Assembly (NCBI GenBank): GCA_000503835.1 | Contig: CP006914.1 | Location: 239,341 to 303,340 of the forward strand | Direction of reading: 5' to 3' | DNA length: 64,000 nucleotides | From: a candidate division WWE3 bacterium RAAC2_WWE3_1 | Lineage (GTDB): Bacteria; Patescibacteriota; WWE3; UBA101185; UBA10185 | Shown here: positions 600 to 19,035 of the stretch, one piece after another | Layout: every line of letters starts with the position of its first letter | Numbering within the stretch: the first letter of the stretch is position 1 | The notes under the pieces: model-generated | The model's database searches: none | What the model was told of the DNA's origin: nothing | What the model saw: only the letters and a program-made list of their open reading frames with translations | Translations under genes and position numbers: made by a program

Positions 600-600
600 A

Positions 601-2419: not shown

Positions 2420-2458
2420 GTATGCATTTCGGAGAGTACCCCGAAAAGTGACCAAACC

Positions 2459-2493
2459 GAGAGGATAGGGAGTCCCCCTGTCTCTATCCTCTC
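2459..2493 (+). promoter_or_regulatory. Perfect 10-bp inverted repeat hairpin (gagaggatag ... ctatcctctc, 15-nt loop) in the 363-bp gap between VirB3-like and VirB4-like genes; possible attenuator/terminator or protein-binding palindrome
   Basis: Inverted repeat read directly from the sequence. It is followed only by a weak T-run (acccttttaag), so intrinsic termination efficiency is uncertain. Confidence 0.3.
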
Positions 2494-2781
2494 ACCCTTT
2501 TAAGTAAAACCACAACTTGAGAGGGAATTCTCTTTCTTGTTGTGGCTCTTTTTAAACAGCTGACTAAACGGCTGCTTGAAAAGGGTAGAGAGTAAGTTAG
2601 GTCTCTGATTTTACAGAGACGCACTTTGACAAACACAGCATGAAAGTTTACTAAGACAATTTATGGATCATGCAGTGGCGCGGGTACCGGCAAGAGATTG
2701 TCCGTGATCTTTTTCCGGTGCTCACGCCAATAAAGGCATGAAACCTAATCAACCAAACACCTATATACGAAAGGAGAACAC

Positions 2782-4719: not shown

Positions 4720-6077
4720 CGTTTTTTATTTTCCCCGGAATTCCGTTGTTGATACTCGCGCTTTTGGCGTCGATGTTTTTAACATTCGGGATTATGCACG
4801 ACGCAGACCCAAAGGCTTACAATGATTACATCAAAGAAGCCTTGGGTCTGTCCGGGGGAACGTGGTACTCACTCCCCGCCGATGCCGAAGAGAAAATTAT
4901 CTCATTAGGCTTTGATCCTGCTGTTGTTGCCGATGAAATAATGGCGAACAAATGGATTAATGAGAACGGCGGTGAGATTGACCTTGGCATTCAACTATCC
5001 ATACTGGAGGGCGAGTCTAAAGGAGGTACAAATTTAGGTACCTGCAGTGGAATAGCCTCTTCAGCCAAACTGTCCCATCAGGAAGTTGTTTCCGCCCTGT
5101 GGCTTTTAAACTACTGGAAGGAACACGATGTGAGAGATTGGTCAGATATTGCCAAAGAAATGATCCGGCCGGACTATAGCGACTACACAGCACATTGTTC
5201 GGCCGGAGAAATTGGACCCAACGGAATACTTCCTTCCACCGGGGTAAAGATATGCAGGGACGGACTTTCAATGCATCCCGACGACCTGGTGAAATCCTGC
5301 AACTTTTTTGACAAGCGGGTAGCACCGTACGGAAAAAACTGGTGGTTAAAAGCTATCGGATACAGGTCGGGGCAGACAAAAGCCGAAAAGATTGACTCAC
5401 TGTATGGTTGGAACCATGACAGCACTTACCGCAATCAGCTTGTAGATAGGGCCGATGTTTTAAATGCTGCGGCGTTCGGTTGGAGCGACTACGCACCCGT
5501 TTCTGAGAATGCCTACGTTTTCAAAGGAGGGTGGTGGCGTAGTCAGGCAATTAAGGTTTTGAAAACGACAGGTTTGCTTGAAGGTATAGTGTTTGCCGCA
5601 GGTCCGGACTATCCGCCATGGGAACCACCACAAGTTGCAGGGAGCTTTTCCAACCCCTATCCGGACAGCGTAATATGCGGGTATGAATACGGAAAACCTG
5701 TTGCCAACGGAATTCATTGGGGAATAGATCTTTGCATAGGCGACCCGTTGAGATCCTCTCCGATATACGCCATGCATTCCGGTACCGTAACGTTTTCCAG
5801 ATATCTGTCTCCCAGCGAAACGTTAGCAGGTCAATGGTGGGTTTCAGGAAACGTCATCGCCGTAGAAGGAAAAGACGATGAAGGAAAAACTATCTGGACA
5901 GCTTACGGCCACGGTGCCAACGGTACCACTAAAGTTAAGGAAGGAGATGTTGTAAAGGAAGGTCAGTTGCTCATGATGTCTGGAACAACCGGCTTTTCTA
6001 CAGGAATTCACCTGCACCTTGCTATGAAAATTAATGGCGGGTGGGTGAATCCTTCGGCTTATCTAGGGGGCGATTGA
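4686..6077 (+). CDS. Membrane-anchored peptidoglycan hydrolase with C-terminal M23 (LytM-type) peptidase domain; VirB1-like functional analogue
   Basis: N-terminal hydrophobic anchor (LLAFFIFPGIPLLILALLASMFLTFGIM). The C-terminus has the M23 signature HWGIDL ... GHGANGTT ... TGFSTGIHLHLAM (HxxxD and HxH metal ligands). GTG start 4686 overlaps the upstream gene by 34 nt. An in-frame ATG at MFLTF is the alternative start. Confidence 0.7.
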   Translation: MDTRSFFRSLLAFFIFPGIPLLILALLASMFLTFGIMHDADPKAYNDYIKEALGLSGGTWYSLPADAEEKIISLGFDPAVVADEIMANKWINENGGEIDLGIQLSILEGESKGGTNLGTCSGIASSAKLSHQEVVSALWLLNYWKEHDVRDWSDIAKEMIRPDYSDYTAHCSAGEIGPNGILPSTGVKICRDGLSMHPDDLVKSCNFFDKRVAPYGKNWWLKAIGYRSGQTKAEKIDSLYGWNHDSTYRNQLVDRADVLNAAAFGWSDYAPVSENAYVFKGGWWRSQAIKVLKTTGLLEGIVFAAGPDYPPWEPPQVAGSFSNPYPDSVICGYEYGKPVANGIHWGIDLCIGDPLRSSPIYAMHSGTVTFSRYLSPSETLAGQWWVSGNVIAVEGKDDEGKTIWTAYGHGANGTTKVKEGDVVKEGQLLMMSGTTGFSTGIHLHLAMKINGGWVNPSAYLGGD

Positions 6078-6280
6078 TCGGAGGATTTTTCTCTCTCATT
6101 CGCCCCGTTTCCGCTCAGGAAAAACTTTCTTGCTGTGTTAGAACATGAGCATTTAAATGTAAATTTGAATGTTGATGTTTCGGTTTAGCTTTTAAAGTCA
6201 AACCGTTTATCAAAGCACTTTAAAAATATAGATAAGCTAACGTTTATTATGTAAGGCGGGCGCCGGTAAGATTTTCACTT

Positions 6281-6289
6281 GATATAATT
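6281..6289 (+). promoter_or_regulatory. Extended -10 promoter element (tgaTATAAT) upstream of the 6359 gene
   Basis: TGnTATAAT match at 6281-6289. There is no good -35, which is consistent with extended -10 promoters. Confidence 0.3.
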
Positions 6290-6358
6290 GGAAGTCTTCC
6301 CGGCGTGATAGCCTTAATAAGAGGCGTTAAAAATCAGACTATCGGAAGGAGAAAAGCA

Positions 6359-7576
6359 ATGAGTTCAGGTAAAGCGTTGACGGCCTTGGGCCTACTAATT
6401 TTCACACTTTGTGCGGTTGTAGGATTCCTCGCCTTTGCGTTAAATACTTTAAGTGTAGGTTCTGATCTTTTTTCAGGGATAGTTTTACCGCAATTGGAAA
6501 CAGTAGTATTATATGCAGTTTCCTTTACACTTGCGGTAATTCTTAGCCAGGTTTTTTCAATCCGGTTTGTTAAAGTTTCACAAAACTTTGTATTCAAGAT
6601 TTTTGACCGGCAGTGGCTCCCCAAAGAAGGTAAGGCCGAAACTTATACAACTGAATACGGCGAAAGGTTGGAAAAGGTTGTGTCGCAAAGCTATACAGGA
6701 ACAGTTGTATGGGAATTGGTTACGCAAACAATCCCCACAGTTTTTCTGTTAAGTTTCGTATTCGGTGTTCTTGCTGTGATTGTTGCCTTCGCCGTAAATC
6801 TGTCGCTTCCGCTAGTCGGATTAGGAACAGTATTTATGGTCAACGTTGTTTTGTTTTCATGGGAATACTGGGTAAAACAATGGAGAAGGAAATACAGCAA
6901 ACTGATAATTTTCACTTCACAGGTTGGGTATTTGAGGGTGAGAACACCACTTCTTTCCCTTCTTTTCGGCATCGGAAATTTACCGAGAGTATCCTGGACA
7001 CCCGTGAGTGAAATAAACGATGACCAGATCGCCGCGGATCCCCAGGATTTCGATCCAAAATACAAAACGTCTTGGCTGCGCGATCAGTATACGTCGTTCT
7101 TGTCCAAAAAAAATAACATAAGAACGATATTTCTTAGATCGAAGTCTAACGAAGCGGAAGATACTGTGCTGTGGATCGATCACGGACCAGGTATCGAAAA
7201 GATACTAAAAAGTCTAAAGAGAAGGTCTACACAGCTGTTGACGGAGCAGAGTTACATAGATCGGGCTGCCCTTCGTATGCGCCTAGGAGGCACCGCTGAA
7301 GAGGACTGGAGTCGTATTCGTGCTGACGAAGAGGCAAGACTTTTTCAGGAACGTTTCAGGGAAATTAGCATTGCTCCAAAAACCCACGATCTGTATAGGA
7401 TTGAAGATCCGGGGTTATACGACAACGACGGCAACCTGATTGAGAAAACGTCTGTCGAGGCTAACGCAGGGAGAGGCGATTATGATGTTTCGCATTTTTT
7501 CTCCTCCCCTAGCCGTCGGCTAAATGATTACGATGCTACAGAGGAGCAGAATCCTGATCAGGATAAAATTCCGTAG
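6359..7576 (+). CDS. Polytopic membrane protein (about 4 TM helices) with ~200-aa charged cytoplasmic C-terminal domain; hypothetical, last gene of the T4SS-like cluster
   Basis: The ORF track starts at 6305. ATG 6359 has a perfect RBS ggaagga 6 nt upstream and lies downstream of the extended -10 element. Hydrophobic helices in the N-terminal half. No recognisable catalytic motif. Confidence 0.5.
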   Translation: MSSGKALTALGLLIFTLCAVVGFLAFALNTLSVGSDLFSGIVLPQLETVVLYAVSFTLAVILSQVFSIRFVKVSQNFVFKIFDRQWLPKEGKAETYTTEYGERLEKVVSQSYTGTVVWELVTQTIPTVFLLSFVFGVLAVIVAFAVNLSLPLVGLGTVFMVNVVLFSWEYWVKQWRRKYSKLIIFTSQVGYLRVRTPLLSLLFGIGNLPRVSWTPVSEINDDQIAADPQDFDPKYKTSWLRDQYTSFLSKKNNIRTIFLRSKSNEAEDTVLWIDHGPGIEKILKSLKRRSTQLLTEQSYIDRAALRMRLGGTAEEDWSRIRADEEARLFQERFREISIAPKTHDLYRIEDPGLYDNDGNLIEKTSVEANAGRGDYDVSHFFSSPSRRLNDYDATEEQNPDQDKIP

Positions 7577-7588
7577 TTCCCGTAATAT

Positions 7589-7635
7589 GGGAAAAGGATG
7601 AGAACAATGTTTTCATCCTTTTCCTTACTTTAAAA
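7589..7635 (+). terminator. Intrinsic terminator: 16-bp near-perfect stem (ggaaaaggatgagaac / gttttcatccttttcc), 3-nt loop, T/A-rich tail
   Basis: Hairpin read directly from the sequence 12 nt after stop codon 7576. It separates the membrane cluster from the rho-like gene. Confidence 0.5.
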
Positions 7636-7705
7636 ATTAAGAGTAGGTCGAAATTCGGACTTAATTTGGATATTGAGATCGTATTTGGGCCTATCCTAAT
7701 AAGGG

Positions 7706-9061
7706 ATGGTAAATCAACTAAGAGAAAGGAAGAGAAATATGATCGGACTTGTGTTACAGCAGGAATTGTCTAGTGTTGAAAAACCCTTGTATGACTACAT
7801 GGGAAACAAGAAGAACGTGAATAATTATCCGAAAACGATTATTATACCCAATACTGATCAGTTTTTCGGGTTTGGAAGACACGATCTTTTTGAGCGTTCA
7901 AAAGACTACGCCCTTGTACACGGAGAGGATACCTACTATTGGGGAAATTTGACCGAAAAGGGTCTAAAACGAACCGGGGTTGTACACTATTCAAAAAACG
8001 AAGAAGAAGTCATGACGGGACTTGAGGTACCACCTGAAGTATCTTCTTACTACAGGCTGGTAGAGGGAGACGAGGTCGGTGTGGTCGTAAACCACCCGGA
8101 AAAAACCGTTTTCATCTGTTCGGTCAACGGTAGTCAGGAGCCACGTGTCTTTAGGTCTTGGCCACAAAATCTTTCTGAATTTCAGAGCGATTACCCTAAA
8201 AGACCTCTTCTTGTCGAAAAGTTCGGAGACTTTGACCTGCGTGCTATGACCTTGCTTGCCCCGATAGGCTTGGGTTCGAGTTATTGGGTTATAGCTCCGG
8301 GAGGCGCCGGAAAAACGTGGCTTCTTGTTAAGCTTTTAGACGCCTGTTTGAAGCTTTCAAGGGAAGATGACAGTATTTACGTAATGATGGTATATGTTGG
8401 CGACCGGCCTGAGGATGCTTCACAATACATCGAGGTATTTGGAAGAAACAAGAGAGGCCGCGGTGTATTTCACCAAGCCCCATGGAACATAAGCCCCGAT
8501 GCTCAGGTTGATGTTGCGAAGTTCGCGATGAAACGAGCTCACAGGTTGGTGGCTACGGGAAGGCATGTGGTCGTGCTGTTCGATTCCATTAGTCGTACTG
8601 TCGCCGCGCACACAGCGTCGTCATATGTGGACGGTGAAGGAGGTATGATAGGGGGAGGTATATACCGCCAAAGTCTGACCGACATGATCGCTAAACAATT
8701 CGGAACGCACGGTTCATTTGATGAGAAACGGTCTCTAACAATTATAGGCTCCGTTCTTTCTTCATCGGATACCAGAAAAACTTCCGAATCAGCTGTTGAT
8801 CAGGAAACTTCGGATAGTTCTACAACAGGAATTTGCAGGTTGCTAAAAATTCCGACGTCGGAAAGACCGTGGGTATCGGTTAACGAAGGCGAAACCTATA
8901 CGAGATTTCCCAATGGGAGAGATTTCAGAAGCGAGAATCAGCGTCAGGAAATGGAAACGGTTAAGAAATTGATGCGGACAGGTGCCGGGAGCAGGGATTC
9001 TTCGGAGGCGCATAAAATTCTTTTAAAATATGCCAGGGAAAACCCTCTCCCTAAGTACTGA
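7706..9061 (+). CDS. rho: Transcription termination factor Rho (divergent), 451 aa
   Basis: Collinear matches to E. coli Rho across both domains. RNP1-like FFGFGR in the N-terminal OB region (Rho DGFGFLR). DLRAMTLLAPIGLGSSYWVIAPGGAGKTWLL versus [33 protein letters not shown] (Walker A). VMMVYVGDRPEDA versus LMVLLIDERPEEV. VVVLFDSISRTVAAHT versus VIILLDSITRLARAYN (Walker B). SLTIIGSVL versus SLTIIATAL. Confidence 0.65.
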   Translation: MVNQLRERKRNMIGLVLQQELSSVEKPLYDYMGNKKNVNNYPKTIIIPNTDQFFGFGRHDLFERSKDYALVHGEDTYYWGNLTEKGLKRTGVVHYSKNEEEVMTGLEVPPEVSSYYRLVEGDEVGVVVNHPEKTVFICSVNGSQEPRVFRSWPQNLSEFQSDYPKRPLLVEKFGDFDLRAMTLLAPIGLGSSYWVIAPGGAGKTWLLVKLLDACLKLSREDDSIYVMMVYVGDRPEDASQYIEVFGRNKRGRGVFHQAPWNISPDAQVDVAKFAMKRAHRLVATGRHVVVLFDSISRTVAAHTASSYVDGEGGMIGGGIYRQSLTDMIAKQFGTHGSFDEKRSLTIIGSVLSSSDTRKTSESAVDQETSDSSTTGICRLLKIPTSERPWVSVNEGETYTRFPNGRDFRSENQRQEMETVKKLMRTGAGSRDSSEAHKILLKYARENPLPKY

Positions 9062-9096: not shown

Positions 9097-9140
9097 AAGA
9101 GGCAAAGATTAAATGTTTTTGCCTCTTTTTTTATTTTTCC
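9097..9140. terminator. Bidirectional intrinsic terminator between convergent rho-like gene and coiled-coil gene
   Basis: Stem aagaggcaaa / tttgcctctt with an 11-nt loop, flanked by T-run tttttttatttttcc on the plus strand and an A-run on the minus strand. Confidence 0.5.
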
Positions 9141-9550
9141 GGGGATTTGTTTTCGCCGTCGTGAAGTTTGAGGCTTTGTTTCTCCAGATTAGTTATTCTT
9201 CTGTTCATGAAGGCTCTTTCTTCGCGGTTTTCTTTTATTTCCCCAATCATAGCATCAACATTATCGTAGAGTTTGGGAAAGTTTATAGTTCTTGTGTCCA
9301 GCTCTTCGAGTTTTTGTTCTACTTTGAAAAGTCTGTTTAAGATACCGGTTAATGTGTTATTTATTCTAGTTAGTTCTTCAGTTATTCCGCTTACTGTATT
9401 GGTTACCTTAGCTAGCTCTTTAGTTATTTCATCTACTGTATTATTTGTCCTTGCTACTTCTTTCTCCAGCGTCTCCAGCTTGCCTTGTATCACGCCTAAG
9501 ACTTTCTCGACCCTGGATTCAAATGTATTTTCTAGAACAGTGTCTTTCAT
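9131..9550 (-). CDS. Small coiled-coil protein (~139 aa) with three ~11-14-residue T/N-rich heptad-like repeats (NNTVDEITKEL / TNTVSGITEEL / NNTLTGILNRL); co-transcribed downstream of the giant surface protein
   Basis: The ORF track uses a TTG start at 9589; the first ATG is 9550 (MKDTVLEN). Sequence is K/E/L-rich. Same strand as the giant gene with only 69 bp between them. Confidence 0.45.
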   Translation of the reverse strand: MKDTVLENTFESRVEKVLGVIQGKLETLEKEVARTNNTVDEITKELAKVTNTVSGITEELTRINNTLTGILNRLFKVEQKLEELDTRTINFPKLYDNVDAMIGEIKENREERAFMNRRITNLEKQSLKLHDGENKSPEK

Positions 9551-9657
9551 TTGTTTTTCGAAAATAACACAGTGAAGAAAGTTGTTCAATATGTCAGCCT
9601 ATGAAAAACGGAAAAATTGTAAACCAATATTCTAATATGCCCCCAACACAATAAAAG

Positions 9658-12600
9658 CTACTCGCCGAATCTTAATGCGGAATTTTCGTTATATAAAAGT
9701 TTTACAAGTGTGTCATTAAACGCCATGGTGTGTATTGAAACCTCATCGATTTTTCCATCAAAATATCCGCTGCCTGCGGAGTCACGTCCTATATTTAATG
9801 CCGTTGCACTAGTCGACATAACATTGTCGGCCTCAGCCTGAGTTCCCGTGTTTACGCCATTTACGTATATTTTAATATTTGATCCGTCGTAGGTGCAAAA
9901 AACGTGGGACCAGGTACTTGTAGAAAGGGCAGTTGAGGACACGGCGGCCGTCTGCCAGGCTCCGGCATATATCTCGCACTGCGGTTTATTCGAGGAGTCG
10001 GTAGTTAGCCTAAACTCGTTGTTCTTTTGAATTATGGTCTTCGAGGTCGCGGCGGTGGCAGGATTGACCCACGCGCCGAACGAAAAGTTGTTGTATGGCT
10101 GTGAGGTTGCCGAGGTTAAAAGAACGGTGTTAGAGCTAGCAAGATAGTCATCAGTCCCGTCAAAATCCAGACTTCCGTTGAACTTGCCGCTTTCTCCCCC
10201 AAACCACATTTCATTCGCACTCCCCACACATGTCCCTACCGTTGTATTGCCTAATGTTTGAGGATAGATTGTTAAGTTGGTACCGACTGCAGTTCCGTTC
10301 GAGTTCTGTGCTGAATTATTTGCAGTGTTGCCGGAGCATTCGTTAAGTTTGTAGTTATACGTTGCATCACCTCTGTTATATTCCCAGTTTATTTGCTGTG
10401 GGGTACGGGCGTATTTGTACATAACAATGTTGTCGATTTTGCCTTCGAAGTTTGTGTTGCCGGCGGGTTGTGCACCGACGGTGAAGTCGCTCGCGGTTAC
10501 AGGATTCAAGTCTCCGACCGCCGTAAGCGTTCCGCTCTGGGCAGCGCCTCTTTTAATACCGTTGACATAAATGTCGGTATTGGCAGTAGAATCCCGGTCA
10601 ACGACAACTTCCAAATGCACCCACTGGTTGCTGGGAACTGAGGCTGCGTCCGACAACGTAAATTGATCCGTGCCGTCCGATATGTAAAATCTGGGAAGTC
10701 CGGCACTGCTGATGAATAAATAGTAGCCGGGATCGGTTGCTGTAGTAGTGGCTTTCTTGGCAATAACAACGTCGGTACTGACAGGTGGGGCCTTATATAT
10801 CCACGTGGAAATAGAGAAATCTTCGGTGTTGATTGAAAGATCGGCGTTAGTGGGTTCCTGAAGATAATCATCGCCTCCGTCAAAATACCCGGCATAACCG
10901 AACTTCCCGATCTGACCTCCTGTCGGGCCCGAACCTGCCGGACCGGAACGGAGGTTATATTGATTCACCGAAGAATCTAAAACAGAGAGTGTGCTGTCAT
11001 CGTTTATCCAGGAGCCTTCGTCAAATTTCCAATGTCCAAAAGGTGCCTCACACGTCGCCGTATCCCCCGGCACGCAAAACTCGCGATCATACGAATTCGA
11101 GGGGTTTCCGGAACTGTCGGTCGATACAGCGCCCCATTGAGAAGTTTTCGAGTCGTTCAAAAAAAGTTTGGCCCGGTCGGAGCCGATATCAAAATTATAT
11201 ATACTTACTTCGTCTATGGAGCCGTTAAATTTGGACGAGTAATCTTCCCCGCGTCCGCCTATGACCAATGTATTGTCTCCGTTAACGGTACCTGATGCTG
11301 CGATTGTCGTTTTCGAATCGACTAAAAGTCCGTCAATGTAAAGGTCGATTTGGGTATTATCTTTTTTCACCGCAGTTGCATTGTGCCAAAGACCGTCGTA
11401 TAAATCCGTAGGACTTGAGGCCGAAGTGTCCGGGCCCCAAGTTGTGTCATCATCAACACCGAATAAAAGATTCCCCGCAGTGTTGAAATATAATGCGTAG
11501 CCCGCAGTAGTATTTCCTCCTCTTCCGAGCACATATTCTGTGCCGGAAGGATTGGATGAGGAGCTTGATTTGAACCAGAGATTTAAAGCAAAACCGGCGG
11601 CGTTGAATATAAAGGCATTATCGTCTCTCGAGGCATAGTTTGTGCCGTTGGGGTAGAATGCTTTATTAAATTTTCCTGTTACGGTGTATGAAACGGCAGT
11701 CGGAGGGGAGGCCGTAAGGGTTAGGTTTCTGCTATTTCCTGTTCTATCGTAAATCGTTGTTCCCCCACCCTCATCGAAACGCCAAAATCCGAGTGCCGTA
11801 CCCAGAGTTGGGTCGGGAGAAGGGTATTGTGCGTCCAAATCTTTTGTTATCTGAGTTATTTCAGCCGGATAGTTATATATTTTTACATCATCTATTCGAC
11901 CCTTGAATATTTCCCCAGAGCCTCCTACCCATTGGGAACCGTAGGTTTTTCCGATCAAAAGTGGGGCACCGGCAGAATCGATTGTATAGGCTGAGCCATT
12001 TGTTGTTGTATTTTCCAGAACCCCGTTTACATATATTTTTAAGTTTGTTCCGTCGAAGGTACCTGCAAGGTGATACCAGGTGTTGGGGGTCCAGGAGGAT
12101 GTTGTTGAGGCAACGCTTTTTAGTTTAGAAGTGCCGTATTTTGCAATCTGGTTAACAGTTACACCACCAGCTGTGGTAAAAGCTCCACCCACATATAAAT
12201 TCCCGTTATATACTGCGAAAGCGTTGACGGTGCTATCCACCCCCGTTGTCTGTCCGATATTAGAAAACTGATTCGTCTGGTCATTGTATTTTGCAATGTA
12301 GTTAACACTTACTCCTCCCGCCGTGATGAAATATCCCCCCGCATACAAACTCCCGTTATATACTGCGAAAGCGTTGACGGTGCTATCCACCCCCGTTGTC
12401 TGTCCGATATTTGAAAAGGTGTTTGTAGAGTCATTATACTTTGCGATTTTGTTGACACTTATTCCTCCCGCCGTGGTTAAGTCTCCACCCACATACAAAT
12501 TCCCGTTATATACTGCGAGAGTCTGGACGTAGCTATTTACCCCCGTTGTCTGTCCAATATTTGAAAAGGTGTTTGTCTGGTCATTGTACTTTGCAATGTA

Positions 12601-15600
12601 GTTAACCGTCACACCTCCGGCGGTGGTGAAATATCCACCCACATACAGGTTTCCGTTATATACTGCGAGAGTCTGGACTGTGATGCCTACACCTGTAGTC
12701 TGTCCGATATTAGAAAACTGATTCGTCTGGTCATTGTATTTTGCGATACGGTTAACCGTCACACCCCCCGCTGTGGTAAAACCTCCCCCCACATACAGAT
12801 TCTCGTTATATACTGCGAAAGCGTTGACGGTGCTATTCACCCCCGTTGTCTGTCCGATATTAGAAAACTGATTCGTCTGGTCATTGTATTTTGCAATGTA
12901 GTTAACACTTACTCCCCCAGCCGTGGCAAAAGTTCCACCCACATACAGGTTTCCGTTATATACTGTAAGAGCGTTGATGTTACCACTTACCCCCGTTGTC
13001 TGTCCTATATTTGAAAACTGATTCGTCTGGTCGTTGTATTTTGCTATGTAGTTAACACTTACTCCTCCCGCTGTGGTAAATTGACCTCCGACATACAAGT
13101 TTCCGTTATACACAGCGAAAGCCTCGGCAGGCGCTGACACCCCAGTTCCCTGCCCAATACTAGAAAAAGCTTCCGAAGCACTATCATTCACCACAAACTT
13201 AGCCTTCCCGTCCGTCTTATCCAGAAAAAGCTGATAATCCCCCTTGTCAATAACACCCATATTACCGGGCGCTGAGGTAGAAAAACCATTATCCACAGAA
13301 ACCCAAGCTGAAACTGCAATGGATGACGTTGGGGAAATATATGAACTGCTGCTTGTAGTCACAAAATCATTATTCCCGTCAAAGGAAACACCCGATCCGT
13401 ATCTTCCGGGCGCAAATTCTGCGCCTTCGTTTAGGGTTCCCGTGGCACCGTTTCCGCTCACGTCATTTGTAGTAGTTCCTGAGCCTTCTTCAAATTTATA
13501 ATACAGATTTGATGGGGGGGACAGTTCGGCTAAGTTATATATTTCGTCATCGGTTAGTGCTGTATTGTATGTTCTGAAGTCGTCAAGACGGCCTTTGAAA
13601 TTCTCTCCGGAACCTCCGGCCCATTGAGAACCGTAGGTTTTACCCATGTAAAGCGGGGAGGATGATGCTGAAAGTGTAAATGATGACGTGTTTGTTGTGG
13701 TGTTTTCAAGGACACCGTTTATATACATTTTAAGTGTTTTTCCGTCAAAGGTTCCTGTAAGGTGGTACCAGGTGTTTGCCGTGAATGATGCTGTGGTTGA
13801 CGACACAGTTTTAGTGTTGGAGGTGCCGTATTTCGCGATGTAGTTAACACTCACACTTCCAGCTGTGGTAAAGTTTCCACCCACATACAGATTCCCGTTA
13901 TATACTGCAAAAGCGTAGACGGTGCTATTTACCCCCGTTGTCTGTCCAATATTCGAAAACTGATTCGTCTGATCATTGTACTTTGCAATGTAGTTAACAC
14001 TCACACCCCCTGCCGTGGTTAAGTTTCCCCCCACATACAAGTTTCCGTTATACATAGCAAGAGAGTCGACTTCGGTATCTACCCCTGTTGTCTGTCCTAT
14101 ATTAGAAAACTGATTCGTCTGGTCATTGTATTTTGCAATGTAGTTAACACTAACACCTCCTGCCGTGGTAAAGTACCCCCCTACATACAAGTTTCCGTTG
14201 TACACAGTCATGTCGAGAACCATACCATCAACCCCTGTTGTCTGTCCAATATTCGAAAACTGATTCGTCTGGTCATTGTATTTTGCAATGTAGTTAACCG
14301 TCACACCTCCCGCTGTGGAAAATATTCCGCCCACATACAAGTTTCCGTTATATACTGCAAAAGCGTAGACTTCGCCAGCTACCCCTGTTGTCTGTCCTAT
14401 GTTAGAAAACTGATTCGTCTGGTCATTGTATTTTGCAATGTAGTTAACACTAACACCTCCTGCCGTGGTAAAGTACCCCCCTACATACAAGTTTCCGTTA
14501 TATACTGCCAAAGCGCTGACGAAGTTATCTACACCCGTACCCTGTCCTATATTAGAAAAAGCCTTAGCAACGTTGTCATTAACAACCCATTTAGCTTTCC
14601 CGTCTGTTTTATCCATGTAAAACTGGTAATCGCCTTTATCAACAACTCCCATATTAGAAGGAGACGATGTGGAGAAGCCGTCGGTCATTTTTACCCATCC
14701 GGATACTGTGACCTGGGAAGTGGGAGCGAGTGTCGGATTAGAACCCGCTGTTACGTAGTCATCGACGCCGTCAAGAGAAGTTGCGTTAACATACTTACCT
14801 TCGTTCCACGCGGCACTGTTAACAAGTGTTGCCGTGTTGGAATTTCCCGAATAGTCGGCTGATGTTGTACCTGTACCTTCGTCCATCTTCCAATAGCCTG
14901 TTAAACCATCCGACACAAAATTAGTTGAATCATTTCCGAACGCAGCCGACGTTCCGTGCAAAGTGGGGGAGTACTTTATGTTATCGGACCTTATTTCGAC
15001 GAGCGTTCTTTCTTTGGCGTATATTTTGAATTCATCGATGTACCCGTCAAAATTTGAACCGCTGGAACCCGCCCCTATGTTAAGTGTATTTGTTTCGGTA
15101 GCGGGAGATCCGTCACCATTAATGCTGGTTCCTTTTAAAACTCCGTCAACATATATTGATATTTCATCATCAGAATCGTTTGTGTACGCCAGGCTAATCA
15201 AGTGCCATTGATTAAGATTTAACGCGTCATCCACAGTAAGCGTTGCATCAGTTGTTCCGAGGTCTATTTTCGCCGAAAGGTCAACAACCTGATCGTTACT
15301 TCCTGCCGCAAGTCCGAGATAGTTGTTTGCCCCCTTAGAAAATATTTTTCCTGTGTTTGACCCGCCTAGTGTGTTTGCCCGCACCCACATTTGAATCGTG
15401 AAGCCACTGTTTAGTTTTTTTCCAAAGTTGATAGGTTCGTTGTCAGTGACACCTACCACATCGTCAGATCCGTCGAAAACAAGACATCTGCCGCTTACAC
15501 AATATTCATCTGCGGATTGCCAGGAAGGCATGGTAATGTCACTGACAGATAGTGTTTTTAACGATAGAATCGAAGATGAGTAAATATCATTGTTATTAGT

Positions 15601-17982
15601 TGTTGCTGTAACATCGATTGTTTGAGATGAAGATGGGGCGCTGAACGCCGAGGAGCGTGCTCTGTTTGAAGGGGTGACTGTCGTATTAGCAATATCCGTA
15701 GGTGTCCCATTAGGGTCTATTTGGAGTCTTAAAGAAGATGAACTTGAATTAGCACCATTCACTTCATGATAGTATGCGGCCGATTGTGAGTATATTTCTG
15801 CGGGGTCAAAAAGAGTATCAAAGTTTTGAGGAGCGGAGCCCGAGGATAAGAGTGTATTAGCCAGTAGATATTGATTCTCGAGTTTTGTTACACCGGTAGT
15901 ACTTGTTTGGTCAACGATTATCTTTGCGGAGTAAATATCGTAGGTGCCGTTTGTGGTTCCTCCCGATGCAACGAGTCTATAATTTTTACCTGTCGCCGGT
16001 GTAAAAGAAACACGAACTCTTGTTGAGGATGTTGCAGTTCCGGAGGAAACCAATGTTGCTTTATCTGTCCATCCAGCAAAAGACCCGTTATCTTCCTGCA
16101 ATATTATTGTCGCATTGATTGTCCATGTTAAAACTAATTTACCGTCGGCACCTGAACCCCCTGTTTTTGCGGTACCGTCACCCGATCCCCCTCCCCCTCC
16201 TCCGTTACCACTTGCAGGAGCGGATCCGTTGGCACCAGCTCCTCCACCGTCTCCGCCATGCCCGGCTCCCGCCGGAGTTGATGCAGTTGGGTATGTTGCA
16301 GTATCCCAAGTCTGAGGCCCTGAATATCCGTCACTAGCCGTGCCTGCTGAAGAACCCCCGTAACCTCCTGTACCGGTATTGTGGTTTCTACCTATCTCCC
16401 CCTGTCCTCCATTAAATTTTACATCCCCAACACTTGACGAGGCGGCACCACCAAGACCTCCCGCCGGCGGAGTGCCTGTTGAATTTGACCCAGGTAAGCC
16501 TCCCATCGCCATTACACTTGAAGTATTGATAAAATAGGTGTGTCCACCAGATTGTCCCGCTCCGCTTGTTCCCCCTGAGCCTCCCGCTCCAACCACGAGC
16601 GTATGTGGGCTACCGGGCGTTACCGCCTGGGCGTTTTTTTTAACGTAAGCGCCACCTCCGCCGCCTCCGCCGCCATCAGAAGTTGCGTTTTGGCCGCCTC
16701 CGCCTCCGCCGGCACCCCAGGCCTCAACCTGAACAGATTGAACACCGCTAGGAGCTGACCAGTTACTGCTGGTCGCAGTTGTGTACGACGCTGTTCCGCT
16801 TGCCCCTGATACTTTATATACAACCTCTGCAGAAAAAGTTTTCGTTCCATCCCAATTTCCTTCCGTATAATTCCAATACTTCGGAGCGTTAAGAGCAGCC
16901 GCAGTTGTATTGGATTTTGCCACCTCGTAATTTCCGAGCTCGATTTGAGTTTGTGTGGTTGTTAAAGCGCTTTTTCCTATATTTTGAAAGACCAGGATTC
17001 TTGCTGATTTAACCTGGGGAGTTGTTCCGTTTGCCAGATTTATATTATATTCAGTCGTTCCGGTTGGAGGTGTAAACGCTGTCGCACTCCTTTTTCTTGC
17101 AAAGGCGGTTTCGGTAACCGTAACCGTTGAGTCTTGTGTTGAGGTACCCGCACGCTCGAGTGCTACCGTTAAAGTTCCGGATGAAACCTGAGCGACAACC
17201 TCAAAGTAGTATGTGACCGTTCCGCTATATTTTGTTGTATCCAGTTGAACAAGAGAAGGATCGTCCCCTGTAGCCGTCGCGATGTGGTCAATAATATTTA
17301 TCTCCTGTCTTAATTTTTGATCCGGAACAGCCGGGTCTCCGAGTGCCGCATTGTTAGCGTTTGATGTTGAGTCATATGCCGTTCCTCCGTACCCCTCGTC
17401 AAATTTCAGATACATCGAAGGCGACGGTCCTATTTCTTCACTTCCCGCACTTGGAGCACCGCTCGGAGAAAGACTTGTTACCGAGGATACAGCCCCGTCT
17501 ATTGTTGAATGGGCTATTGGGTTTGAATAGTACATAAAGATACTATTTCCCCCGTTTGTGACGCTATCGACAACAACGTCGTATACGGTTGATGTAGTGT
17601 TGCATCCTGAAACAAGGGTATATTTTAAAAGCTTCCCTCCAACCGACGTGAAAATTGTGTCATCACAATCTGTCTGCATTTTTCCGTCAGTTATCAGTGC
17701 CTGGGTATTTACGGTTACGGATATTCTTCTCTCGGAAGAAATATCCGAAGTATGCGAAAAGCTAATCTCCTGCCTTTGGTTATATGAATCATCAAACCAG
17801 TCGGCTTTAACACGGGTTGCTCTTATAATTGAAAATATTGTTACGGGGATTAAAACGGCAAGAGTTACAAGGATAATTATTCTTCTTGATTTTTTGTTTT
17901 TAAATGCGGCGGCAACTGCCTCGCGCATCTTGTTTAGTATATGGATATTTGTTTTCAGGCGCAGTTTATTGATAGCTTCCAT
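9658..17982 (-). CDS. Giant cell-surface protein (2774 aa): N-terminal signal-anchor, multiple LamG/ConA-like lectin-fold modules, two arrays of SBBP-like beta-propeller repeats, Gly-rich segments
   Basis: Uninterrupted 8.3 kb ORF. N-terminal basic stretch plus TM (RRIIILVTLAVLIPVTIFSII). Repeated LamG-like cores (W.HL.GTFDG..LKIYVNGVL; LNQWHLISLAYTNDSDDEISIYVDGVL). About 16 copies of the 41-aa unit YNGNLYVGG.FTTAGGVSVNYIAKYNDQTNQFSNIGQTTGV, resembling the SBBP beta-propeller repeat. Runs of GGGGGGGG. Confidence 0.8.
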   Translation of the reverse strand: MEAINKLRLKTNIHILNKMREAVAAAFKNKKSRRIIILVTLAVLIPVTIFSIIRATRVKADWFDDSYNQRQEISFSHTSDISSERRISVTVNTQALITDGKMQTDCDDTIFTSVGGKLLKYTLVSGCNTTSTVYDVVVDSVTNGGNSIFMYYSNPIAHSTIDGAVSSVTSLSPSGAPSAGSEEIGPSPSMYLKFDEGYGGTAYDSTSNANNAALGDPAVPDQKLRQEINIIDHIATATGDDPSLVQLDTTKYSGTVTYYFEVVAQVSSGTLTVALERAGTSTQDSTVTVTETAFARKRSATAFTPPTGTTEYNINLANGTTPQVKSARILVFQNIGKSALTTTQTQIELGNYEVAKSNTTAAALNAPKYWNYTEGNWDGTKTFSAEVVYKVSGASGTASYTTATSSNWSAPSGVQSVQVEAWGAGGGGGGQNATSDGGGGGGGGAYVKKNAQAVTPGSPHTLVVGAGGSGGTSGAGQSGGHTYFINTSSVMAMGGLPGSNSTGTPPAGGLGGAASSSVGDVKFNGGQGEIGRNHNTGTGGYGGSSAGTASDGYSGPQTWDTATYPTASTPAGAGHGGDGGGAGANGSAPASGNGGGGGGSGDGTAKTGGSGADGKLVLTWTINATIILQEDNGSFAGWTDKATLVSSGTATSSTRVRVSFTPATGKNYRLVASGGTTNGTYDIYSAKIIVDQTSTTGVTKLENQYLLANTLLSSGSAPQNFDTLFDPAEIYSQSAAYYHEVNGANSSSSSLRLQIDPNGTPTDIANTTVTPSNRARSSAFSAPSSSQTIDVTATTNNNDIYSSSILSLKTLSVSDITMPSWQSADEYCVSGRCLVFDGSDDVVGVTDNEPINFGKKLNSGFTIQMWVRANTLGGSNTGKIFSKGANNYLGLAAGSNDQVVDLSAKIDLGTTDATLTVDDALNLNQWHLISLAYTNDSDDEISIYVDGVLKGTSINGDGSPATETNTLNIGAGSSGSNFDGYIDEFKIYAKERTLVEIRSDNIKYSPTLHGTSAAFGNDSTNFVSDGLTGYWKMDEGTGTTSADYSGNSNTATLVNSAAWNEGKYVNATSLDGVDDYVTAGSNPTLAPTSQVTVSGWVKMTDGFSTSSPSNMGVVDKGDYQFYMDKTDGKAKWVVNDNVAKAFSNIGQGTGVDNFVSALAVYNGNLYVGGYFTTAGGVSVNYIAKYNDQTNQFSNIGQTTGVAGEVYAFAVYNGNLYVGGIFSTAGGVTVNYIAKYNDQTNQFSNIGQTTGVDGMVLDMTVYNGNLYVGGYFTTAGGVSVNYIAKYNDQTNQFSNIGQTTGVDTEVDSLAMYNGNLYVGGNLTTAGGVSVNYIAKYNDQTNQFSNIGQTTGVNSTVYAFAVYNGNLYVGGNFTTAGSVSVNYIAKYGTSNTKTVSSTTASFTANTWYHLTGTFDGKTLKMYINGVLENTTTNTSSFTLSASSSPLYMGKTYGSQWAGGSGENFKGRLDDFRTYNTALTDDEIYNLAELSPPSNLYYKFEEGSGTTTNDVSGNGATGTLNEGAEFAPGRYGSGVSFDGNNDFVTTSSSSYISPTSSIAVSAWVSVDNGFSTSAPGNMGVIDKGDYQLFLDKTDGKAKFVVNDSASEAFSSIGQGTGVSAPAEAFAVYNGNLYVGGQFTTAGGVSVNYIAKYNDQTNQFSNIGQTTGVSGNINALTVYNGNLYVGGTFATAGGVSVNYIAKYNDQTNQFSNIGQTTGVNSTVNAFAVYNENLYVGGGFTTAGGVTVNRIAKYNDQTNQFSNIGQTTGVGITVQTLAVYNGNLYVGGYFTTAGGVTVNYIAKYNDQTNTFSNIGQTTGVNSYVQTLAVYNGNLYVGGDLTTAGGISVNKIAKYNDSTNTFSNIGQTTGVDSTVNAFAVYNGSLYAGGYFITAGGVSVNYIAKYNDQTNQFSNIGQTTGVDSTVNAFAVYNGNLYVGGAFTTAGGVTVNQIAKYGTSKLKSVASTTSSWTPNTWYHLAGTFDGTNLKIYVNGVLENTTTNGSAYTIDSAGAPLLIGKTYGSQWVGGSGEIFKGRIDDVKIYNYPAEITQITKDLDAQYPSPDPTLGTALGFWRFDEGGGTTIYDRTGNSRNLTLTASPPTAVSYTVTGKFNKAFYPNGTNYASRDDNAFIFNAAGFALNLWFKSSSSSNPSGTEYVLGRGGNTTAGYALYFNTAGNLLFGVDDDTTWGPDTSASSPTDLYDGLWHNATAVKKDNTQIDLYIDGLLVDSKTTIAASGTVNGDNTLVIGGRGEDYSSKFNGSIDEVSIYNFDIGSDRAKLFLNDSKTSQWGAVSTDSSGNPSNSYDREFCVPGDTATCEAPFGHWKFDEGSWINDDSTLSVLDSSVNQYNLRSGPAGSGPTGGQIGKFGYAGYFDGGDDYLQEPTNADLSINTEDFSISTWIYKAPPVSTDVVIAKKATTTATDPGYYLFISSAGLPRFYISDGTDQFTLSDAASVPSNQWVHLEVVVDRDSTANTDIYVNGIKRGAAQSGTLTAVGDLNPVTASDFTVGAQPAGNTNFEGKIDNIVMYKYARTPQQINWEYNRGDATYNYKLNECSGNTANNSAQNSNGTAVGTNLTIYPQTLGNTTVGTCVGSANEMWFGGESGKFNGSLDFDGTDDYLASSNTVLLTSATSQPYNNFSFGAWVNPATAATSKTIIQKNNEFRLTTDSSNKPQCEIYAGAWQTAAVSSTALSTSTWSHVFCTYDGSNIKIYVNGVNTGTQAEADNVMSTSATALNIGRDSAGSGYFDGKIDEVSIHTMAFNDTLVKLLYNENSALRFGE
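12080..13150. repeat. Tandem ~123-bp DNA repeats (about 9 copies, high identity) encoding the first SBBP-like beta-propeller array of the giant protein
   Basis: Recurring blocks visible directly, for example tcccgttatatactgcgaaagcgttgacggtgctat and ccccgttgtctgtccgatattagaaaactgattcgtctggtcattgtattttgcaatgtagttaac. They generate spurious plus-strand ORFs with the repeated peptide PPAVVK.PPTYKFPLYTAKALTVLSTPVVCPI. Confidence 0.8.
13780..14540. repeat. Second tandem array of ~123-bp repeats (about 6 copies) encoding the second SBBP-like propeller block
   Basis: Same repeat unit as 12080-13150, separated from it by a LamG-type module. The copies are near-identical. Confidence 0.8.
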
Positions 17983-18010: not shown

Positions 18011-18406
18011 TTAGTTGCTAGGGTTTTTGGGAATAAATAAGTTTAGTTCTTTAACAGGTGTAAAGTGTTTTGTGTCCATCGTCCAAAGAAGATTTTTGTT
18101 AATTATTGCGGTAGCCGCAATAAGTGCGTCCGCTATACCAAGCCTTGTTTTTAGCCCGTATTTAATTATAAGATTGAAGGCTAGGAGCGAGATCTCTTTA
18201 TTTATTTCAACAATATCCATGCTGTCGATAAAATTCAGGTTGATTCTTCTTTCTTTACGGTCTCTTGATCCCAGAACAATTTCGCAGGCCGCTATTCTCG
18301 AAATTTGTACCGAATCTATTTGTTTATGGAAAGTGGAAACAACCTTACTATTGTGTTTCTGCATCTCAATAAGTACGGAAGTATCGATGAGAGTTTTAAT
18401 CGCCAT
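18011..18406 (-). CDS. vapC: PIN-domain ribonuclease toxin (VapC-type), 131 aa
   Basis: N-terminal LIDTSVLIE motif with the conserved Asp. Later acidic positions in GIADALIAATA and WTMDTKHF fit the PIN fold. It overlaps the upstream antitoxin gene by 11 nt. Confidence 0.75.
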   Translation of the reverse strand: MAIKTLIDTSVLIEMQKHNSKVVSTFHKQIDSVQISRIAACEIVLGSRDRKERRINLNFIDSMDIVEINKEISLLAFNLIIKYGLKTRLGIADALIAATAIINKNLLWTMDTKHFTPVKELNLFIPKNPSN

Positions 18407-18689
18407 ACCAAGAGTCTTTTCTCAACTTTGCGGCTATTGTAGAGCTAGATTTGCCCTCCCAATCTTTTCTATTTTTGTACATGCCAATAAAGTCAGAAAT
18501 AGCGTCTCTTTTGTCTAGTGAGGATTTCTTAACACGTCTCTTTTTATACTCATACGTATCGGGGTCAATTATTACTACCTGTTCCTTTCCGTTTTTTGTA
18601 ATATAAATGGGATTGAGTTTAGACATCCCCAAATACATAGAAAGGTTGTGGTGAAAGTCTCTAAGACTCACGTGCTTAGTTTTTTTCAT
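18396..18689 (-). CDS. Phd/YefM-type antitoxin, 97 aa, partner of VapC
   Basis: VSLRDFHHNLSMYL ... PIYITKNGKEQVVIIDPDTYEYKK resembles the Phd/YefM N-terminal fold. Gene order antitoxin-then-toxin with overlap. Confidence 0.6.
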   Translation of the reverse strand: MKKTKHVSLRDFHHNLSMYLGMSKLNPIYITKNGKEQVVIIDPDTYEYKKRRVKKSSLDKRDAISDFIGMYKNRKDWEGKSSSTIAAKLRKDSWYGD

Positions 18690-18960: not shown

Positions 18961-19035
18961 TGGTGACCCCACGGGGAATCGAACCCCGGTTGCCGGGATG
19001 AAAACCCGGCGTCCTAACCGTTAGACGATGGGGCC
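18961..19035 (-). tRNA. tRNA-Glu (anticodon TTC), CCA encoded
   Basis: Reverse complement GGCCCCATCGTCTAACGGTTAGGACGCCGGGTTTTCATCCCGGCAACCGGGGTTCGATTCCCCGTGGGGTCACCA. Anticodon stem CCGGG/CCCGG, loop TTTTCAT (U33, TTC, A37). T-loop TTCGATT. 7-bp acceptor stem. Confidence 0.85.

Follow-up and report, generated by a model that had tools for sequence, protein, structure and literature searches.

A giant protein of a WWE3 bacterium that combines LamG modules, Kelch-type blade arrays, and a glycine-rich cassette: a probable adhesin

The window, that is, the whole stretch of DNA analysed (64,000 nucleotides), contains one uninterrupted ORF of 8.3 kb, which takes up about 13% of its length, as stated in a preliminary description of the sequence; the ORF lies on the minus strand. 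The product is identical (100%) to AHB40191.1 (P147_WWE3C00001G0249) from the closed genome of the candidate division WWE3 bacterium RAAC2_WWE3_1, which confirms the CPR origin proposed earlier. The gene makes up about 1% of the DNA of a very small genome, and the protein is rich in Thr, Ser, Asn, and Gly. The features of the locus are given below, with amino acid positions in the giant protein.

9097..9127, no strand assigned: hairpin with a 13-pair stem and a T-run, between the convergent coiled-coil and Rho-like genes
9131..9589, minus strand: coiled-coil ORF, co-oriented with the giant gene, 152 aa from a TTG start (139 aa as called in related genomes)
9658..17982, minus strand: whole ORF, 2,774 aa plus stop, ATG start
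9658..10392, minus strand: LamG6, aa 2531-2774, C-terminus (Pfam)
10393..11172, minus strand: LamG5, aa 2271-2530 (E 5e-24)
11173..11847, minus strand: LamG4, aa 2046-2270 (E 3e-18)
11848..12117, minus strand: C-terminal part of LamG3, aa 1956-2045, completing LamG3 after blade array 2
12118..13167, minus strand: blade array 2, seven 50-aa blades, aa 1606-1955, within LamG3
13168..13512, minus strand: N-terminal part of LamG3, aa 1491-1605 (Pfam)
13513..13809, minus strand: C-terminal part of LamG2, aa 1392-1490, completing LamG2 after blade array 1
13810..14559, minus strand: blade array 1, five 50-aa Kelch/DUF5122-type blades, aa 1142-1391, within LamG2 (count not fully secure)
14175..14380, minus strand: hyper-divergent 206-nt patch, gene nt 3603-3808, aa 1202-1270, loops of blades 2 and 3
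14560..14940, minus strand: N-terminal part of LamG2, aa 1015-1141, ending near profile position 70 (Pfam)
14941..15477, minus strand: LamG1 (Laminin_G_3), aa 836-1014 (E 2e-22)
15478..17472, minus strand: cassette, aa 171-835 (folded core aa 219-814), a glycine-rich domain between two jelly-roll flanks
16123..16782, minus strand: Gly_rich_2 (PF21722), aa 401-620, containing all three Gly runs
17473..17802, minus strand: DUF2341-like beta domain, aa 61-170 (weak Pfam match, E 0.02)
17803..17982, minus strand: Sec-type N-terminus, aa 1-60, with a basic n-region, a core at aa 35-53, and V-K-A(60)/D-W

Pfam analysis of the giant protein identified six Laminin_G_3 domains, Rax2/DUF5122/Kelch repeats, and Gly_rich_2. 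These are binding-type modules only, rather than unrelated intracellular domains. No catalytic domain was found by Pfam, and an NCBIfam search gave zero matches. Pfam detected no ATPase domain either; the sole Walker-A-like match sits within LamG3. The earlier picture of a giant, non-enzymatic, lectin-like CPR protein therefore stands, but its SBBP label, blade count, and "poly-Gly segments" do not. Laminin_G_3 (PF13385) was matched in six stretches with 402 bits overall (E 1.9e-121), and the individual modules score 67-115 bits each; at least four LamG/ConA-like modules had been expected. When the blade arrays were removed in silico, LamG2 gave a single Laminin_G_3 match (profile 1-150, 107 bits), and so did LamG3 (profile 1-145, 97 bits), the criterion being a score above the Pfam gathering score over most of the 151-position profile. 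On this profile evidence, each blade array is an insertion inside a LamG domain, LamG2 and LamG3 respectively. LamG may serve here as a display scaffold that accepts inserted propellers.

The two tandem blade arrays were also recovered. However, they had been described as about 16 copies of a 41-aa SBBP unit, whereas the repeat unit is 50 aa (150 nt) in 12 copies (5 + 7). The blades score above cutoff against Rax2 (PF12768, 122 bits), DUF5122 (PF17164, 89 bits), and Kelch_6 (49 bits), and by sequence their matches in the PDB are KLHL20 and designed Kelch propellers (E about 1e-15). SBBP (PF06739) had no match at E<=0.1 with the whole protein or at E<=1 with segments, so that only the Laminin_G_3 half of the expected domain pair was found; some distant propeller relatives carry PF06739 beside PF12768/PF17164. 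Four strands are predicted per repeat. The AF2 model of aa 1015-2045, built from a 4-row alignment (pLDDT 38), also has four strands per repeat, without a reliable tertiary fold. Kelch/DUF5122 ("delta-60")/Rax2 propellers of bacteria share the unit of about 50 aa and its four predicted strands. Hundreds of bacterial blade relatives with about 40-45% identity lack LamG and stand alone, at a length of about 800 aa; in contrast, each WWE3 array interrupts a LamG loop, and one of the two has only five blades. Propellers usually close with 6-7 blades, and the orthologues have about 5-7 blades at the position of array 1. The pN/pS ratio was 0.15 at blade framework positions versus 0.96 at 10 variable positions, namely 11-17, 29, 31, and 40 of each blade (pS about 0.5). 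Judged by these ratios, the blade frameworks are conserved, with about ten positions per blade apparently free to vary.

In public MAGs, the copies of the gene are broken up or wrongly joined within blade array 1. The 90% cluster has 36 members; of the 15 listed, only two span the full length, and the others are pieces that break in this array. Two MAG scaffolds split the gene into several ORFs, and array 1 contains exact repeats of 98-107 nt, while the reference was assembled from 101-bp reads. All of this could be expected if the long ORF were a chimeric assembly artefact across the repeats, but such an origin is very improbable. In the two split scaffolds, overlaps are duplicated, 30 nt are lost, 2 nt are added, and an N gap is present, and no clean tandem model explains the k-mers at their joins; by these sequence features they are themselves mis-joins. 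An independent assembly (n=1) contains the intact ORF at the same 8,325-nt length, free of the stops or frameshifts that an artefact might leave. Fragments in other listed assemblies tile the ORF at 96-100% identity, the N- and C-terminal ones being collinear with it. The domain order is common to orthologues at 55-75% identity, and the blades differ from one another by about 19% in DNA. Comparison with two orthologues showed purifying selection on every domain (pN 0.08-0.22 and pS 0.63-0.83 for each domain versus P0002). Orthologue architecture is plastic, with a varying blade number and an alternative insert in LamG2. By these sequence comparisons, the giant ORF is a real, selected gene, and the only remaining uncertainty concerns blades 2-3 of array 1, their number and their order. 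Since the MAG copies are broken at array 1, repeat counts in such genes are unreliable without long reads.

Two haplotypes of the gene were compared. Within the gene, the window and the UBA haplotype differ at 47 nucleotides, 46 of which fall in the 206-nt patch, and comparison of the two haplotypes over 28 kb of the locus revealed no second cluster of differences. Among 14 cluster members, no amino acid difference was found outside array 1, and outside the patch the protein is invariant across the assemblies compared. A single 7-blade array containing both A-type and B-type blades would fit all assemblies at k=61, but at k=101 the junction of A3 with blade 4 contradicts it, and no clean tandem accounts for the MAG joins. 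For these reasons two alleles, with A-type and B-type loops, are preferred from the sequence data, although they are not regarded as proven. A diversity-generating retroelement target was rejected: the variable region has no copy outside the gene, and the substitutions are of all 12 types. No ORF longer than 250 aa within the window contains a YxDD motif. The natural variation in the 206-nt patch may mark the loops likeliest to touch a ligand.

The Gly runs comprise 6, 8, and 6 residues (aa 425-430, 437-444, and 594-599), in agreement with the maximum of 8 given before. However, they are not free segments or linkers, as all three lie inside the folded Gly_rich_2 domain, which matches with 58-65 bits over positions 1-225 of the 226-position profile. 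The AF2 model of the cassette (pLDDT 81.5, pTM 0.67) contains no helix of >=4 residues, and the two jelly-roll flanks are homologous to each other (hhalign 95%). A Foldseek search of the PDB with this model identified the Pam3 fibre (7ypx_A, E 6.4e-7) and the Bxb1 tail tip (9d93_Qa, E 7.9e-6), both with probability 1.0, and further matches to ALK (7mzy) and TNF-like folds. The cassette profile likewise matched the Pam3 fibre (E 6e-7) and RemZ (3e-5) in the PDB. By fold, the identity to the phage heads is 26-29%, and the phage-fibre similarity spans only about one third of the cassette (about 235 aligned columns). In BFVD, 223 viral structures matched the cassette, mostly glycine-rich or tail-fibre proteins by name. 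Profile and model comparison together indicate that the cassette is homologous, in sequence and predicted fold, to the head by which phage tail fibres recognise their receptor, made of a TNF-like and a glycine-rich domain.

[quoted passage not shown] The phage heads (Pam3 gp24, 7YPX/7YFW; Bxb1, 9D93; S16 gp38-type polyglycine adhesins) resemble the cassette in having Gly_rich_2 and GGGGxGG-type motifs beside beta-sandwiches, and their glycine-rich part has been proposed to bind the host receptor. Unlike them, the WWE3 cassette lies near the N-terminus of a Sec-exported cellular protein, as a single chain with two homologous jelly-roll flanks, and it has no alpha-helical trimerisation shaft, neighbouring chaperone gene, or phage context. 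The ALK/LTK extracellular supradomain (7MZY, 7NX3) also packs a glycine-rich lattice on a TNF-like sandwich, and is a ligand-binding module there. However, ALK/LTK is a eukaryotic receptor and matches the model only weakly (E about 1e-2, TM about 0.2); the likeness is a fold analogy and does not indicate membership. The cassette travels as a unit and recurs in many unrelated protein architectures. It was found in >1,000 protein clusters at E<=1e-30, the nearest matches being giant Patescibacteria-type proteins. In other Patescibacteria proteins it is fused to M23 peptidoglycan peptidases, which is consistent with cell-surface targeting. A literature search for PF21722/Gly_rich_2 in CPR bacteria returned nothing relevant.

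The basic n-region of the giant protein is kept from M1 in the orthologues, and the hydrophobic core has 19 residues (aa 35-53). A signal-anchor had been proposed; the hydrophobic segment exists and the long basic n-region would fit an anchor, but a conserved A-x-A suggests cleavage. In 12 of 12 family members inspected, this A-x-A stands directly before a W[YFW]D[DE] mature start, which fits signal peptidase I. Because the hydrophobic segment ends in this family-wide A-x-A, the N-terminal segment is more probably a signal peptide that is cleaved off than an anchor. The smaller cassette-bearing proteins begin with classical signal peptides. A type IV pilin-like N-terminus was rejected on inspection of the sequence, as KNKKSRRIIILVTLAV has neither a Gly-Phe/Met junction nor a Glu at +5. 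In the following domain (aa 61-170, 40-90% identical in homologues), PF10102 (DUF2341) matches aa 105-164 with 15.2-15.7 bits, below the gathering cutoff of 23.4; several homologues have a precomputed PF10102 match at the same position. At the other end, the protein finishes with LamG6 (last residues ...NENSALRFGE) and carries no C-terminal sorting signal: the sortase motif [LIV]Px[TSA]G is absent anywhere in the 2,774 aa. Neither a membrane anchor nor any other retention signal was found in the protein, so it might be freely secreted.

The co-oriented coiled-coil gene noticed earlier adjoins the giant gene and is restricted to close relatives. No terminator was found between the two, which are probably co-transcribed as judged from this sequence, and the hairpin at 9097..9127 is likely the end of the transcription unit. 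On the side of the giant gene opposite the coiled-coil ORF lie a tRNA-Glu and a toxin-antitoxin pair of the PIN/Phd type, as described before. By contrast, the T4SS-like module was not confirmed: the ATPase encoded at 7706-9061 is of the Rho-like type, neither the Walker-A protein of 645 aa nor the polytopic membrane proteins nearby have a Pfam, NCBIfam, or PDB match, and the 645-aa protein has no match to VirB4. No chaperone or tail-fibre-assembly match was found among the neighbouring genes tested. The arrangement of genes had been taken as an argument for host attachment, but of the orthologues only the closest (P0002, 75% identity over the best local match) retains the flanking block, while the more distant P0006 and P0007 are located among housekeeping genes.

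Large extracellular proteins with ConA/lectin and beta-propeller domains were noted in the same genome set (Kantor et al. 2013, PMC3812714). Like the giant protein, they are exported and combine LamG/ConA-like with propeller modules, and cell-surface interaction was proposed for them. That study treats the class collectively, and the nested LamG-propeller arrangement, the glycine-rich cassette, and the variable blade loops are not described there. The giant protein thus belongs to a kind already recognised in CPR, with some details that are new. Multi-LamG surface proteins of DPANN archaea (PMC10266531) are likewise large exported proteins with a proposed role in cell-surface interaction. The nanohaloarchaeal giant proteins (formerly SPEARE) differ in having a VirB4-like ATPase domain and Ig-like arrays, both absent from the WWE3 protein. 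Membership of this T4SS-linked type was rejected, as the protein has no ATPase domain, the neighbouring ATPase is Rho-like, and the 645-aa neighbour does not match VirB4. In a Saccharibacterium, Southlakia epibionticum, Tn-seq has shown that epibiotic growth requires lectin-like envelope proteins (PMC10633639). These are also extracellular Patescibacterial proteins with glycan-binding-type domains, and have been shown genetically to matter for life on the host. However, they contain VCBS, dockerin, and FN3 domains, have no detected homology to the WWE3 protein, and come from a different phylum-level lineage; by analogy they may offer a functional precedent only.

Taken together, the analyses tend to favour a Sec-exported, non-enzymatic, multivalent lectin-like binding protein of a WWE3 (Katanobacteria, CPR) bacterium, and the protein is probably an adhesin. 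The export signal, the exclusively binding-type domains, the phage-head-like cassette, and the variable blade loops speak for this reading. After export and probable cleavage of the signal peptide, the chain would extend outside the cell as about 14 globular modules in a long row. Several weak lectin-type sites might act jointly to bind another cell, through its glycans or surface proteins, or else a matrix of polysaccharide; the specificity might be set by the tip of the glycine-rich domain and by the variable loops of the blades. Attachment to a host cell in particular is suggested by the domain types. To our knowledge, no host of WWE3 is known. How CPR/Patescibacteria find and hold partner cells is little understood beyond a few cultivated Saccharibacteria, and the WWE3 protein gives concrete handles on this question, not an answer. 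LamG and propeller domains also occur in non-adhesin proteins. The search for an anchor, LPXTG motif, or other retention signal, and for partner genes conserved across orthologues, was negative, which also counts against an adhesin.

The domain evidence fits any glycan target equally. The protein might be a secreted or loosely attached carbohydrate-binding scaffold for substrate capture or matrix binding, which would keep the cell attached to polysaccharide, biofilm, or particles of sediment, or concentrate polymers for other enzymes. Consistent with this, the organism comes from acetate-stimulated aquifer sediment (PMC3812714), no anchor was found, and the LamG modules also match the sialidase N-terminal lectin domain and the 3-keto-disaccharide hydrolase family, weakly and mostly below threshold. 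However, no glycoside hydrolase or other enzyme is present in the protein or reliably adjoining it, and the phage-fibre-type head, the M23 fusions, and the strain-level loop variation suggest a changing cell-surface target, which makes matrix binding rather unlikely. An S-layer-like structural coat, whose lectin-like domains would bind the cell's own glycans without recognition of other cells, appears improbable. A glycosylated S-layer and many glycosyltransferases have been suggested for WWE3 (PMC3812714), and the great size, the Thr/Ser/Asn/Gly-rich composition, and the invariance outside the 206-nt patch would suit such a coat. Against it, the sequence analyses gave no sign of lattice formation, the orthologues are plastic in blade number and LamG2 insert, unlike a lattice protein, and the cassette recurs in many unrelated architectures.

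The resemblance of the glycine-rich cassette to phage fibres also raises the question of a phage or tailocin part, that is, a prophage tail-fibre or receptor-binding protein in an integration hotspot. PHROG matches include one "virion structural protein" family (via LamG), tRNA genes and the toxin-antitoxin pair lie nearby, and a serine recombinase is found upstream in the orthologous locus. However, none of the eight flanking ORFs tested matches capsid, portal, terminase, tail-tube, or baseplate families, and a prophage origin was rejected because no phage structural gene occurs among them. The gene carries a Sec signal; diverged WWE3 relatives retain it at differing chromosomal positions, surrounded by housekeeping genes, and the mobile-looking genes lie outside it and vary independently of it. 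A phage part is thus highly unlikely. Within the favoured reading of a cellular binding protein, a more specific and doubtful proposal is that an ultra-small bacterium recognises its partner cell by phage-style hardware. The TNF-like/glycine-rich head and the propeller blades would then be exchangeable specificity determinants, and the blade loops would be re-assorted through recombination between repeats. If this were true, the two haplotypes would be host-range or escape variants coexisting in the aquifer.

The giant protein (2,774 aa) is encoded by a single unbroken ORF (9658..17982, minus strand) with an ATG start, which occupies 13% of the window. All residues match AHB40191.1 (P147_WWE3C00001G0249) of the candidate division WWE3 bacterium RAAC2_WWE3_1; therefore, the CPR origin proposed in the preliminary description is correct. 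The genome is a closed circle of 878,109 bp, obtained from 101-bp paired reads and curated after assembly. Gly, Thr, Ser, Asn, and Ala are abundant in the protein, which contains only ten Cys. Its 90% cluster has 36 members. Two of the 15 listed members are full length; the other 13 tile the ORF with 96-100% identity, and 12 of these 13 break at aa 1167-1258, within the first of two propeller-blade arrays (array 1). Short-read assemblies break in array 1 and not in array 2 because exact repeats of 98-107 nt are present there.

Stops or frameshifts in independent assemblies had been named as signs of an assembly artefact, and in two MAG scaffolds the gene seems to be broken up into several ORFs. 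Neither scaffold has clean joins. In LCFZ01000001 (L001 6001-14511), the first join contains nt 3504-3582 twice; the second join has 2 extra nt, and the coordinates back up over nt 3661-3765. LCGA01000001 (L007 1237-9797) has lost 30 nt and contains a gap of 37 N. No clean tandem model accounts for the k-mers at the joins of these scaffolds. Both scaffolds are mis-joined inside the gene, and their annotations therefore divide it into two or three proteins. The independent assembly DNYF01000002 contains the intact ORF with an equal length of 8,325 nt. The domain order is unchanged in orthologues of 55-75% identity, and every domain showed pN of 0.08-0.22 and pS of 0.63-0.83 against the closest orthologue (P0002). 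The intact independent assembly, the tiling fragments, the collinear orthologues, and the low pN relative to pS make an artefact very unlikely; therefore, the ORF as a whole is real.

Pfam analysis showed six Laminin_G_3 stretches (E 1.9e-121), in agreement with the earlier estimate of at least four LamG/ConA-like modules, together with propeller repeats (Rax2/DUF5122/Kelch), a Gly_rich_2 domain at aa 401-620, and, below threshold, DUF2341 at aa 105-164. No catalytic domain was found by Pfam, and the NCBIfam search gave no match. The C-terminus is a LamG domain; no LPXTG-like motif, and no anchor or sorting motif for cell retention, was found in the protein. Among orthologues, the N-terminus is conserved from M1: basic residues are followed by a hydrophobic core of 19 residues, which leads into V-K-A|D-W. 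An A-x-A-type motif lies immediately before the conserved W[YFW]D[DE], the start of the next domain, in all 12 relatives inspected. The hydrophobic N-terminus had been described as a signal-anchor; the hydrophobic segment is present, and the motif favours a putative signal peptide cleaved by signal peptidase I over such an anchor.

These features support a putative Sec-exported, non-enzymatic protein assembled from some 14 binding-type modules. We infer that it most likely binds multivalently, its ligands being glycans or surface proteins that belong to another cell or to a matrix; target, localisation, and oligomeric state are likewise inferred. A 2013 study of this genome set already noted large ConA/lectin and propeller proteins (PMC3812714), similar claims are standard for DPANN archaea (PMC10266531), and lectin-like envelope proteins matter, by genetics, in a cultivated Saccharibacterium (PMC10633639); thus, the giant protein belongs to a known kind. 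Three features have, to our knowledge, no earlier description: propeller arrays nested in LamG domains, a cassette of the phage-fibre type that is a common module among Patescibacteria, and allelic variation confined sharply to one patch of the blade loops. A literature search on the Pfam family PF21722 (Gly_rich_2) in CPR bacteria found nothing relevant.

The blade repeat unit was measured as 50 aa (150 nt), with 12 copies: five at aa 1142-1391 (array 1) and seven at aa 1606-1955 (array 2). The two arrays had been recognised correctly; the proposed 41-aa unit in about 16 copies was not recovered, and neither was the SBBP identity, since PF06739 is absent from the Pfam matches. By sequence, the seven-blade array matched the KLHL20/KLHL17 Kelch domains and designed Kelch propellers in the PDB at about 1e-15. 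The segment preceding each array, taken alone, had no Pfam match; the segment following each array matched only positions 71-150 of the Laminin_G_3 profile. After in silico deletion of the arrays, the joined halves of LamG2 gave one full-length Laminin_G_3 match (profile 1-150, 107 bits), and those of LamG3 gave another (profile 1-145, 97 bits). Each blade array is thereby predicted to sit inside a LamG domain. LamG2 and LamG3 share 59% identity; either shares about 30-37% with the remaining four. In the orthologue P0003, LamG2 has a different insert of roughly 280 aa (aa ~1070-1354) at the same place, which is unrelated to the blades; therefore, the LamG loop tolerates different insertions. 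A sequence resembling this insert was also found after the glycine-rich cassette in the homologue P0045. Among the proteins retrieved, LamG-propeller nesting occurs only in P0001-P0006, the close WWE3-type orthologues; the best 120 of about 800 blade-repeat relatives lack LamG and are free-standing propeller proteins of up to ~800 aa.

Synonymous divergence among the 12 blade copies is high, with a pS of about 0.5. The pN/pS is 0.15 at 40 framework positions and 0.96 at ten others (11, 12, 13, 15, 16, 17, 29, 31, 40, and 50), a pattern that points to a conserved scaffold with variable loops and selection on the fold. The pattern also shows the copies to be old, and distinguishable in DNA (81% identity). 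P0003, P0004, and P0005 are near-identical apart from blade number (6, 3, and 2, respectively); repeat collapse in short-read assemblies is the most likely reason, and calls for caution on blade counts in such genes.

Comparison with DNYF01000002 showed 47 nt differences in the gene, and 46 of the 47 fall within 206 nt:

14175-14380, minus strand: hyper-divergent patch in the loops of blades 2 and 3 (13603-13808 in the other-haplotype locus, L002)

Over the 28-kb locus, the two sequences align with 99.8-100% identity; their mismatches total about as many as within the gene and form no other cluster. No amino-acid differences were found outside array 1 among 14 cluster members compared. The substitutions are of all types and not adenine-specific, and the window has no reverse transcriptase or template copy; therefore, a diversity-generating retroelement was rejected. 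In the alternative allele, one stretch repeats 107 nt of the adjacent blade junction exactly, a signature of gene conversion; the loop codons of this allele match no other blade. Each mis-joined MAG contains both A-type and B-type loops, which we read as two alleles occurring together. A longer, single array 1 is compatible at k=61 and clashes with one junction at k=101, so that five blades are probable. Array 1 of the closest orthologue has seven blades.

The preliminary description had listed poly-Gly segments. Gly runs of up to 8 residues are present; they are not separate segments, as all three (6, 8, and 6 residues) lie within the Gly_rich_2 domain of a conserved cassette (aa 171-835), whose two jelly-roll flanks are homologous to one another (hhalign 95%). 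The whole cassette is found again, as one unit, in many other proteins, usually directly after a signal peptide. With a profile from 18 cassettes, a search of 1.84 billion proteins gave 1,064 representative clusters at E<=1e-30. Several proteins (P0017, P0105, P0110, P0111, and P0140, one annotated Patescibacteria) carry it as a fusion with an M23 peptidoglycan peptidase, which suggests that the cassette can serve as a targeting module for cell-wall enzymes. The AF2 model, built on the alignment of the 18-cassette profile, is a confident one (pLDDT 81.5, pTM 0.67), with a folded core from aa 219 to 814. Among solved structures, the model was matched best by the cyanophage Pam3 fibre (7ypx_A), at E 6.4e-7 and 26% identity, and by the Bxb1 tail tip (9d93); the ligand-binding region of ALK and TNF/C1q-type sandwiches were among the weaker matches. 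By sequence, the profile matched the Pam3 fibre (E 6e-7) and also RemZ. In the viral structure library, 223 structures matched at E<=0.001, and many of these bear the name of a glycine-rich domain or tail-fibre protein. In phage-fibre glycine-rich heads, GGGGxGG motifs are conserved and the distal tip is variable (PMC9608196).

The neighbouring features are as follows:

339-9061, plus strand: seven-gene block, on the strand opposite to the giant gene
9131-9589, minus strand: small coiled-coil gene, directly downstream of the giant gene with no terminator between
18011-18689, minus strand: Phd/PIN pair, upstream on the same strand, ending 28 nt before the ATG with no terminator between
18961-19035, minus strand: tRNA-Glu, beyond the Phd/PIN pair

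The toxin-antitoxin/tRNA neighbours and the co-oriented coiled-coil gene were thus as first described. A strong hairpin terminator lies downstream of the coiled-coil gene, and the seven-gene block lies beyond it. The block encodes proteins of 86 aa (2 TM), 501 aa (7 TM), 111 aa (2 TM), and 645 aa (Walker A GPSKTGKT), an M23 peptidase with an N-terminal TM segment, a protein of 423 aa (4 TM), and a 451-aa RecA-type ATPase, which is Rho-like by NCBIfam and PDB matches. The block proteins tested have no VirB4, VirD4, or VirB6 match and no T4SS family match; therefore, the 'T4SS-like' label is unproven. The layout loosely resembles Gram-positive conjugative T4SS. No phage structural protein match was found among the flanking ORFs tested.

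A role in attachment had also been argued from the gene arrangement. The block is kept only beside the closest orthologue (L003), where the other flank (L003 1-9267) contains a Zeta toxin, a DnaD-like/HTH protein, and a serine recombinase; two more distant orthologues lie among ribosomal and tRNA-synthetase genes. No partner of the giant gene is therefore conserved, and the argument drawn from its arrangement is not sustained. The upstream flank is a variable spot. In strain-level relatives, a coiled-coil homologue (139 aa) lies 3' of the giant gene; more distant loci lack it, and the P0002 locus has an unannotated 91-aa ORF at this position.
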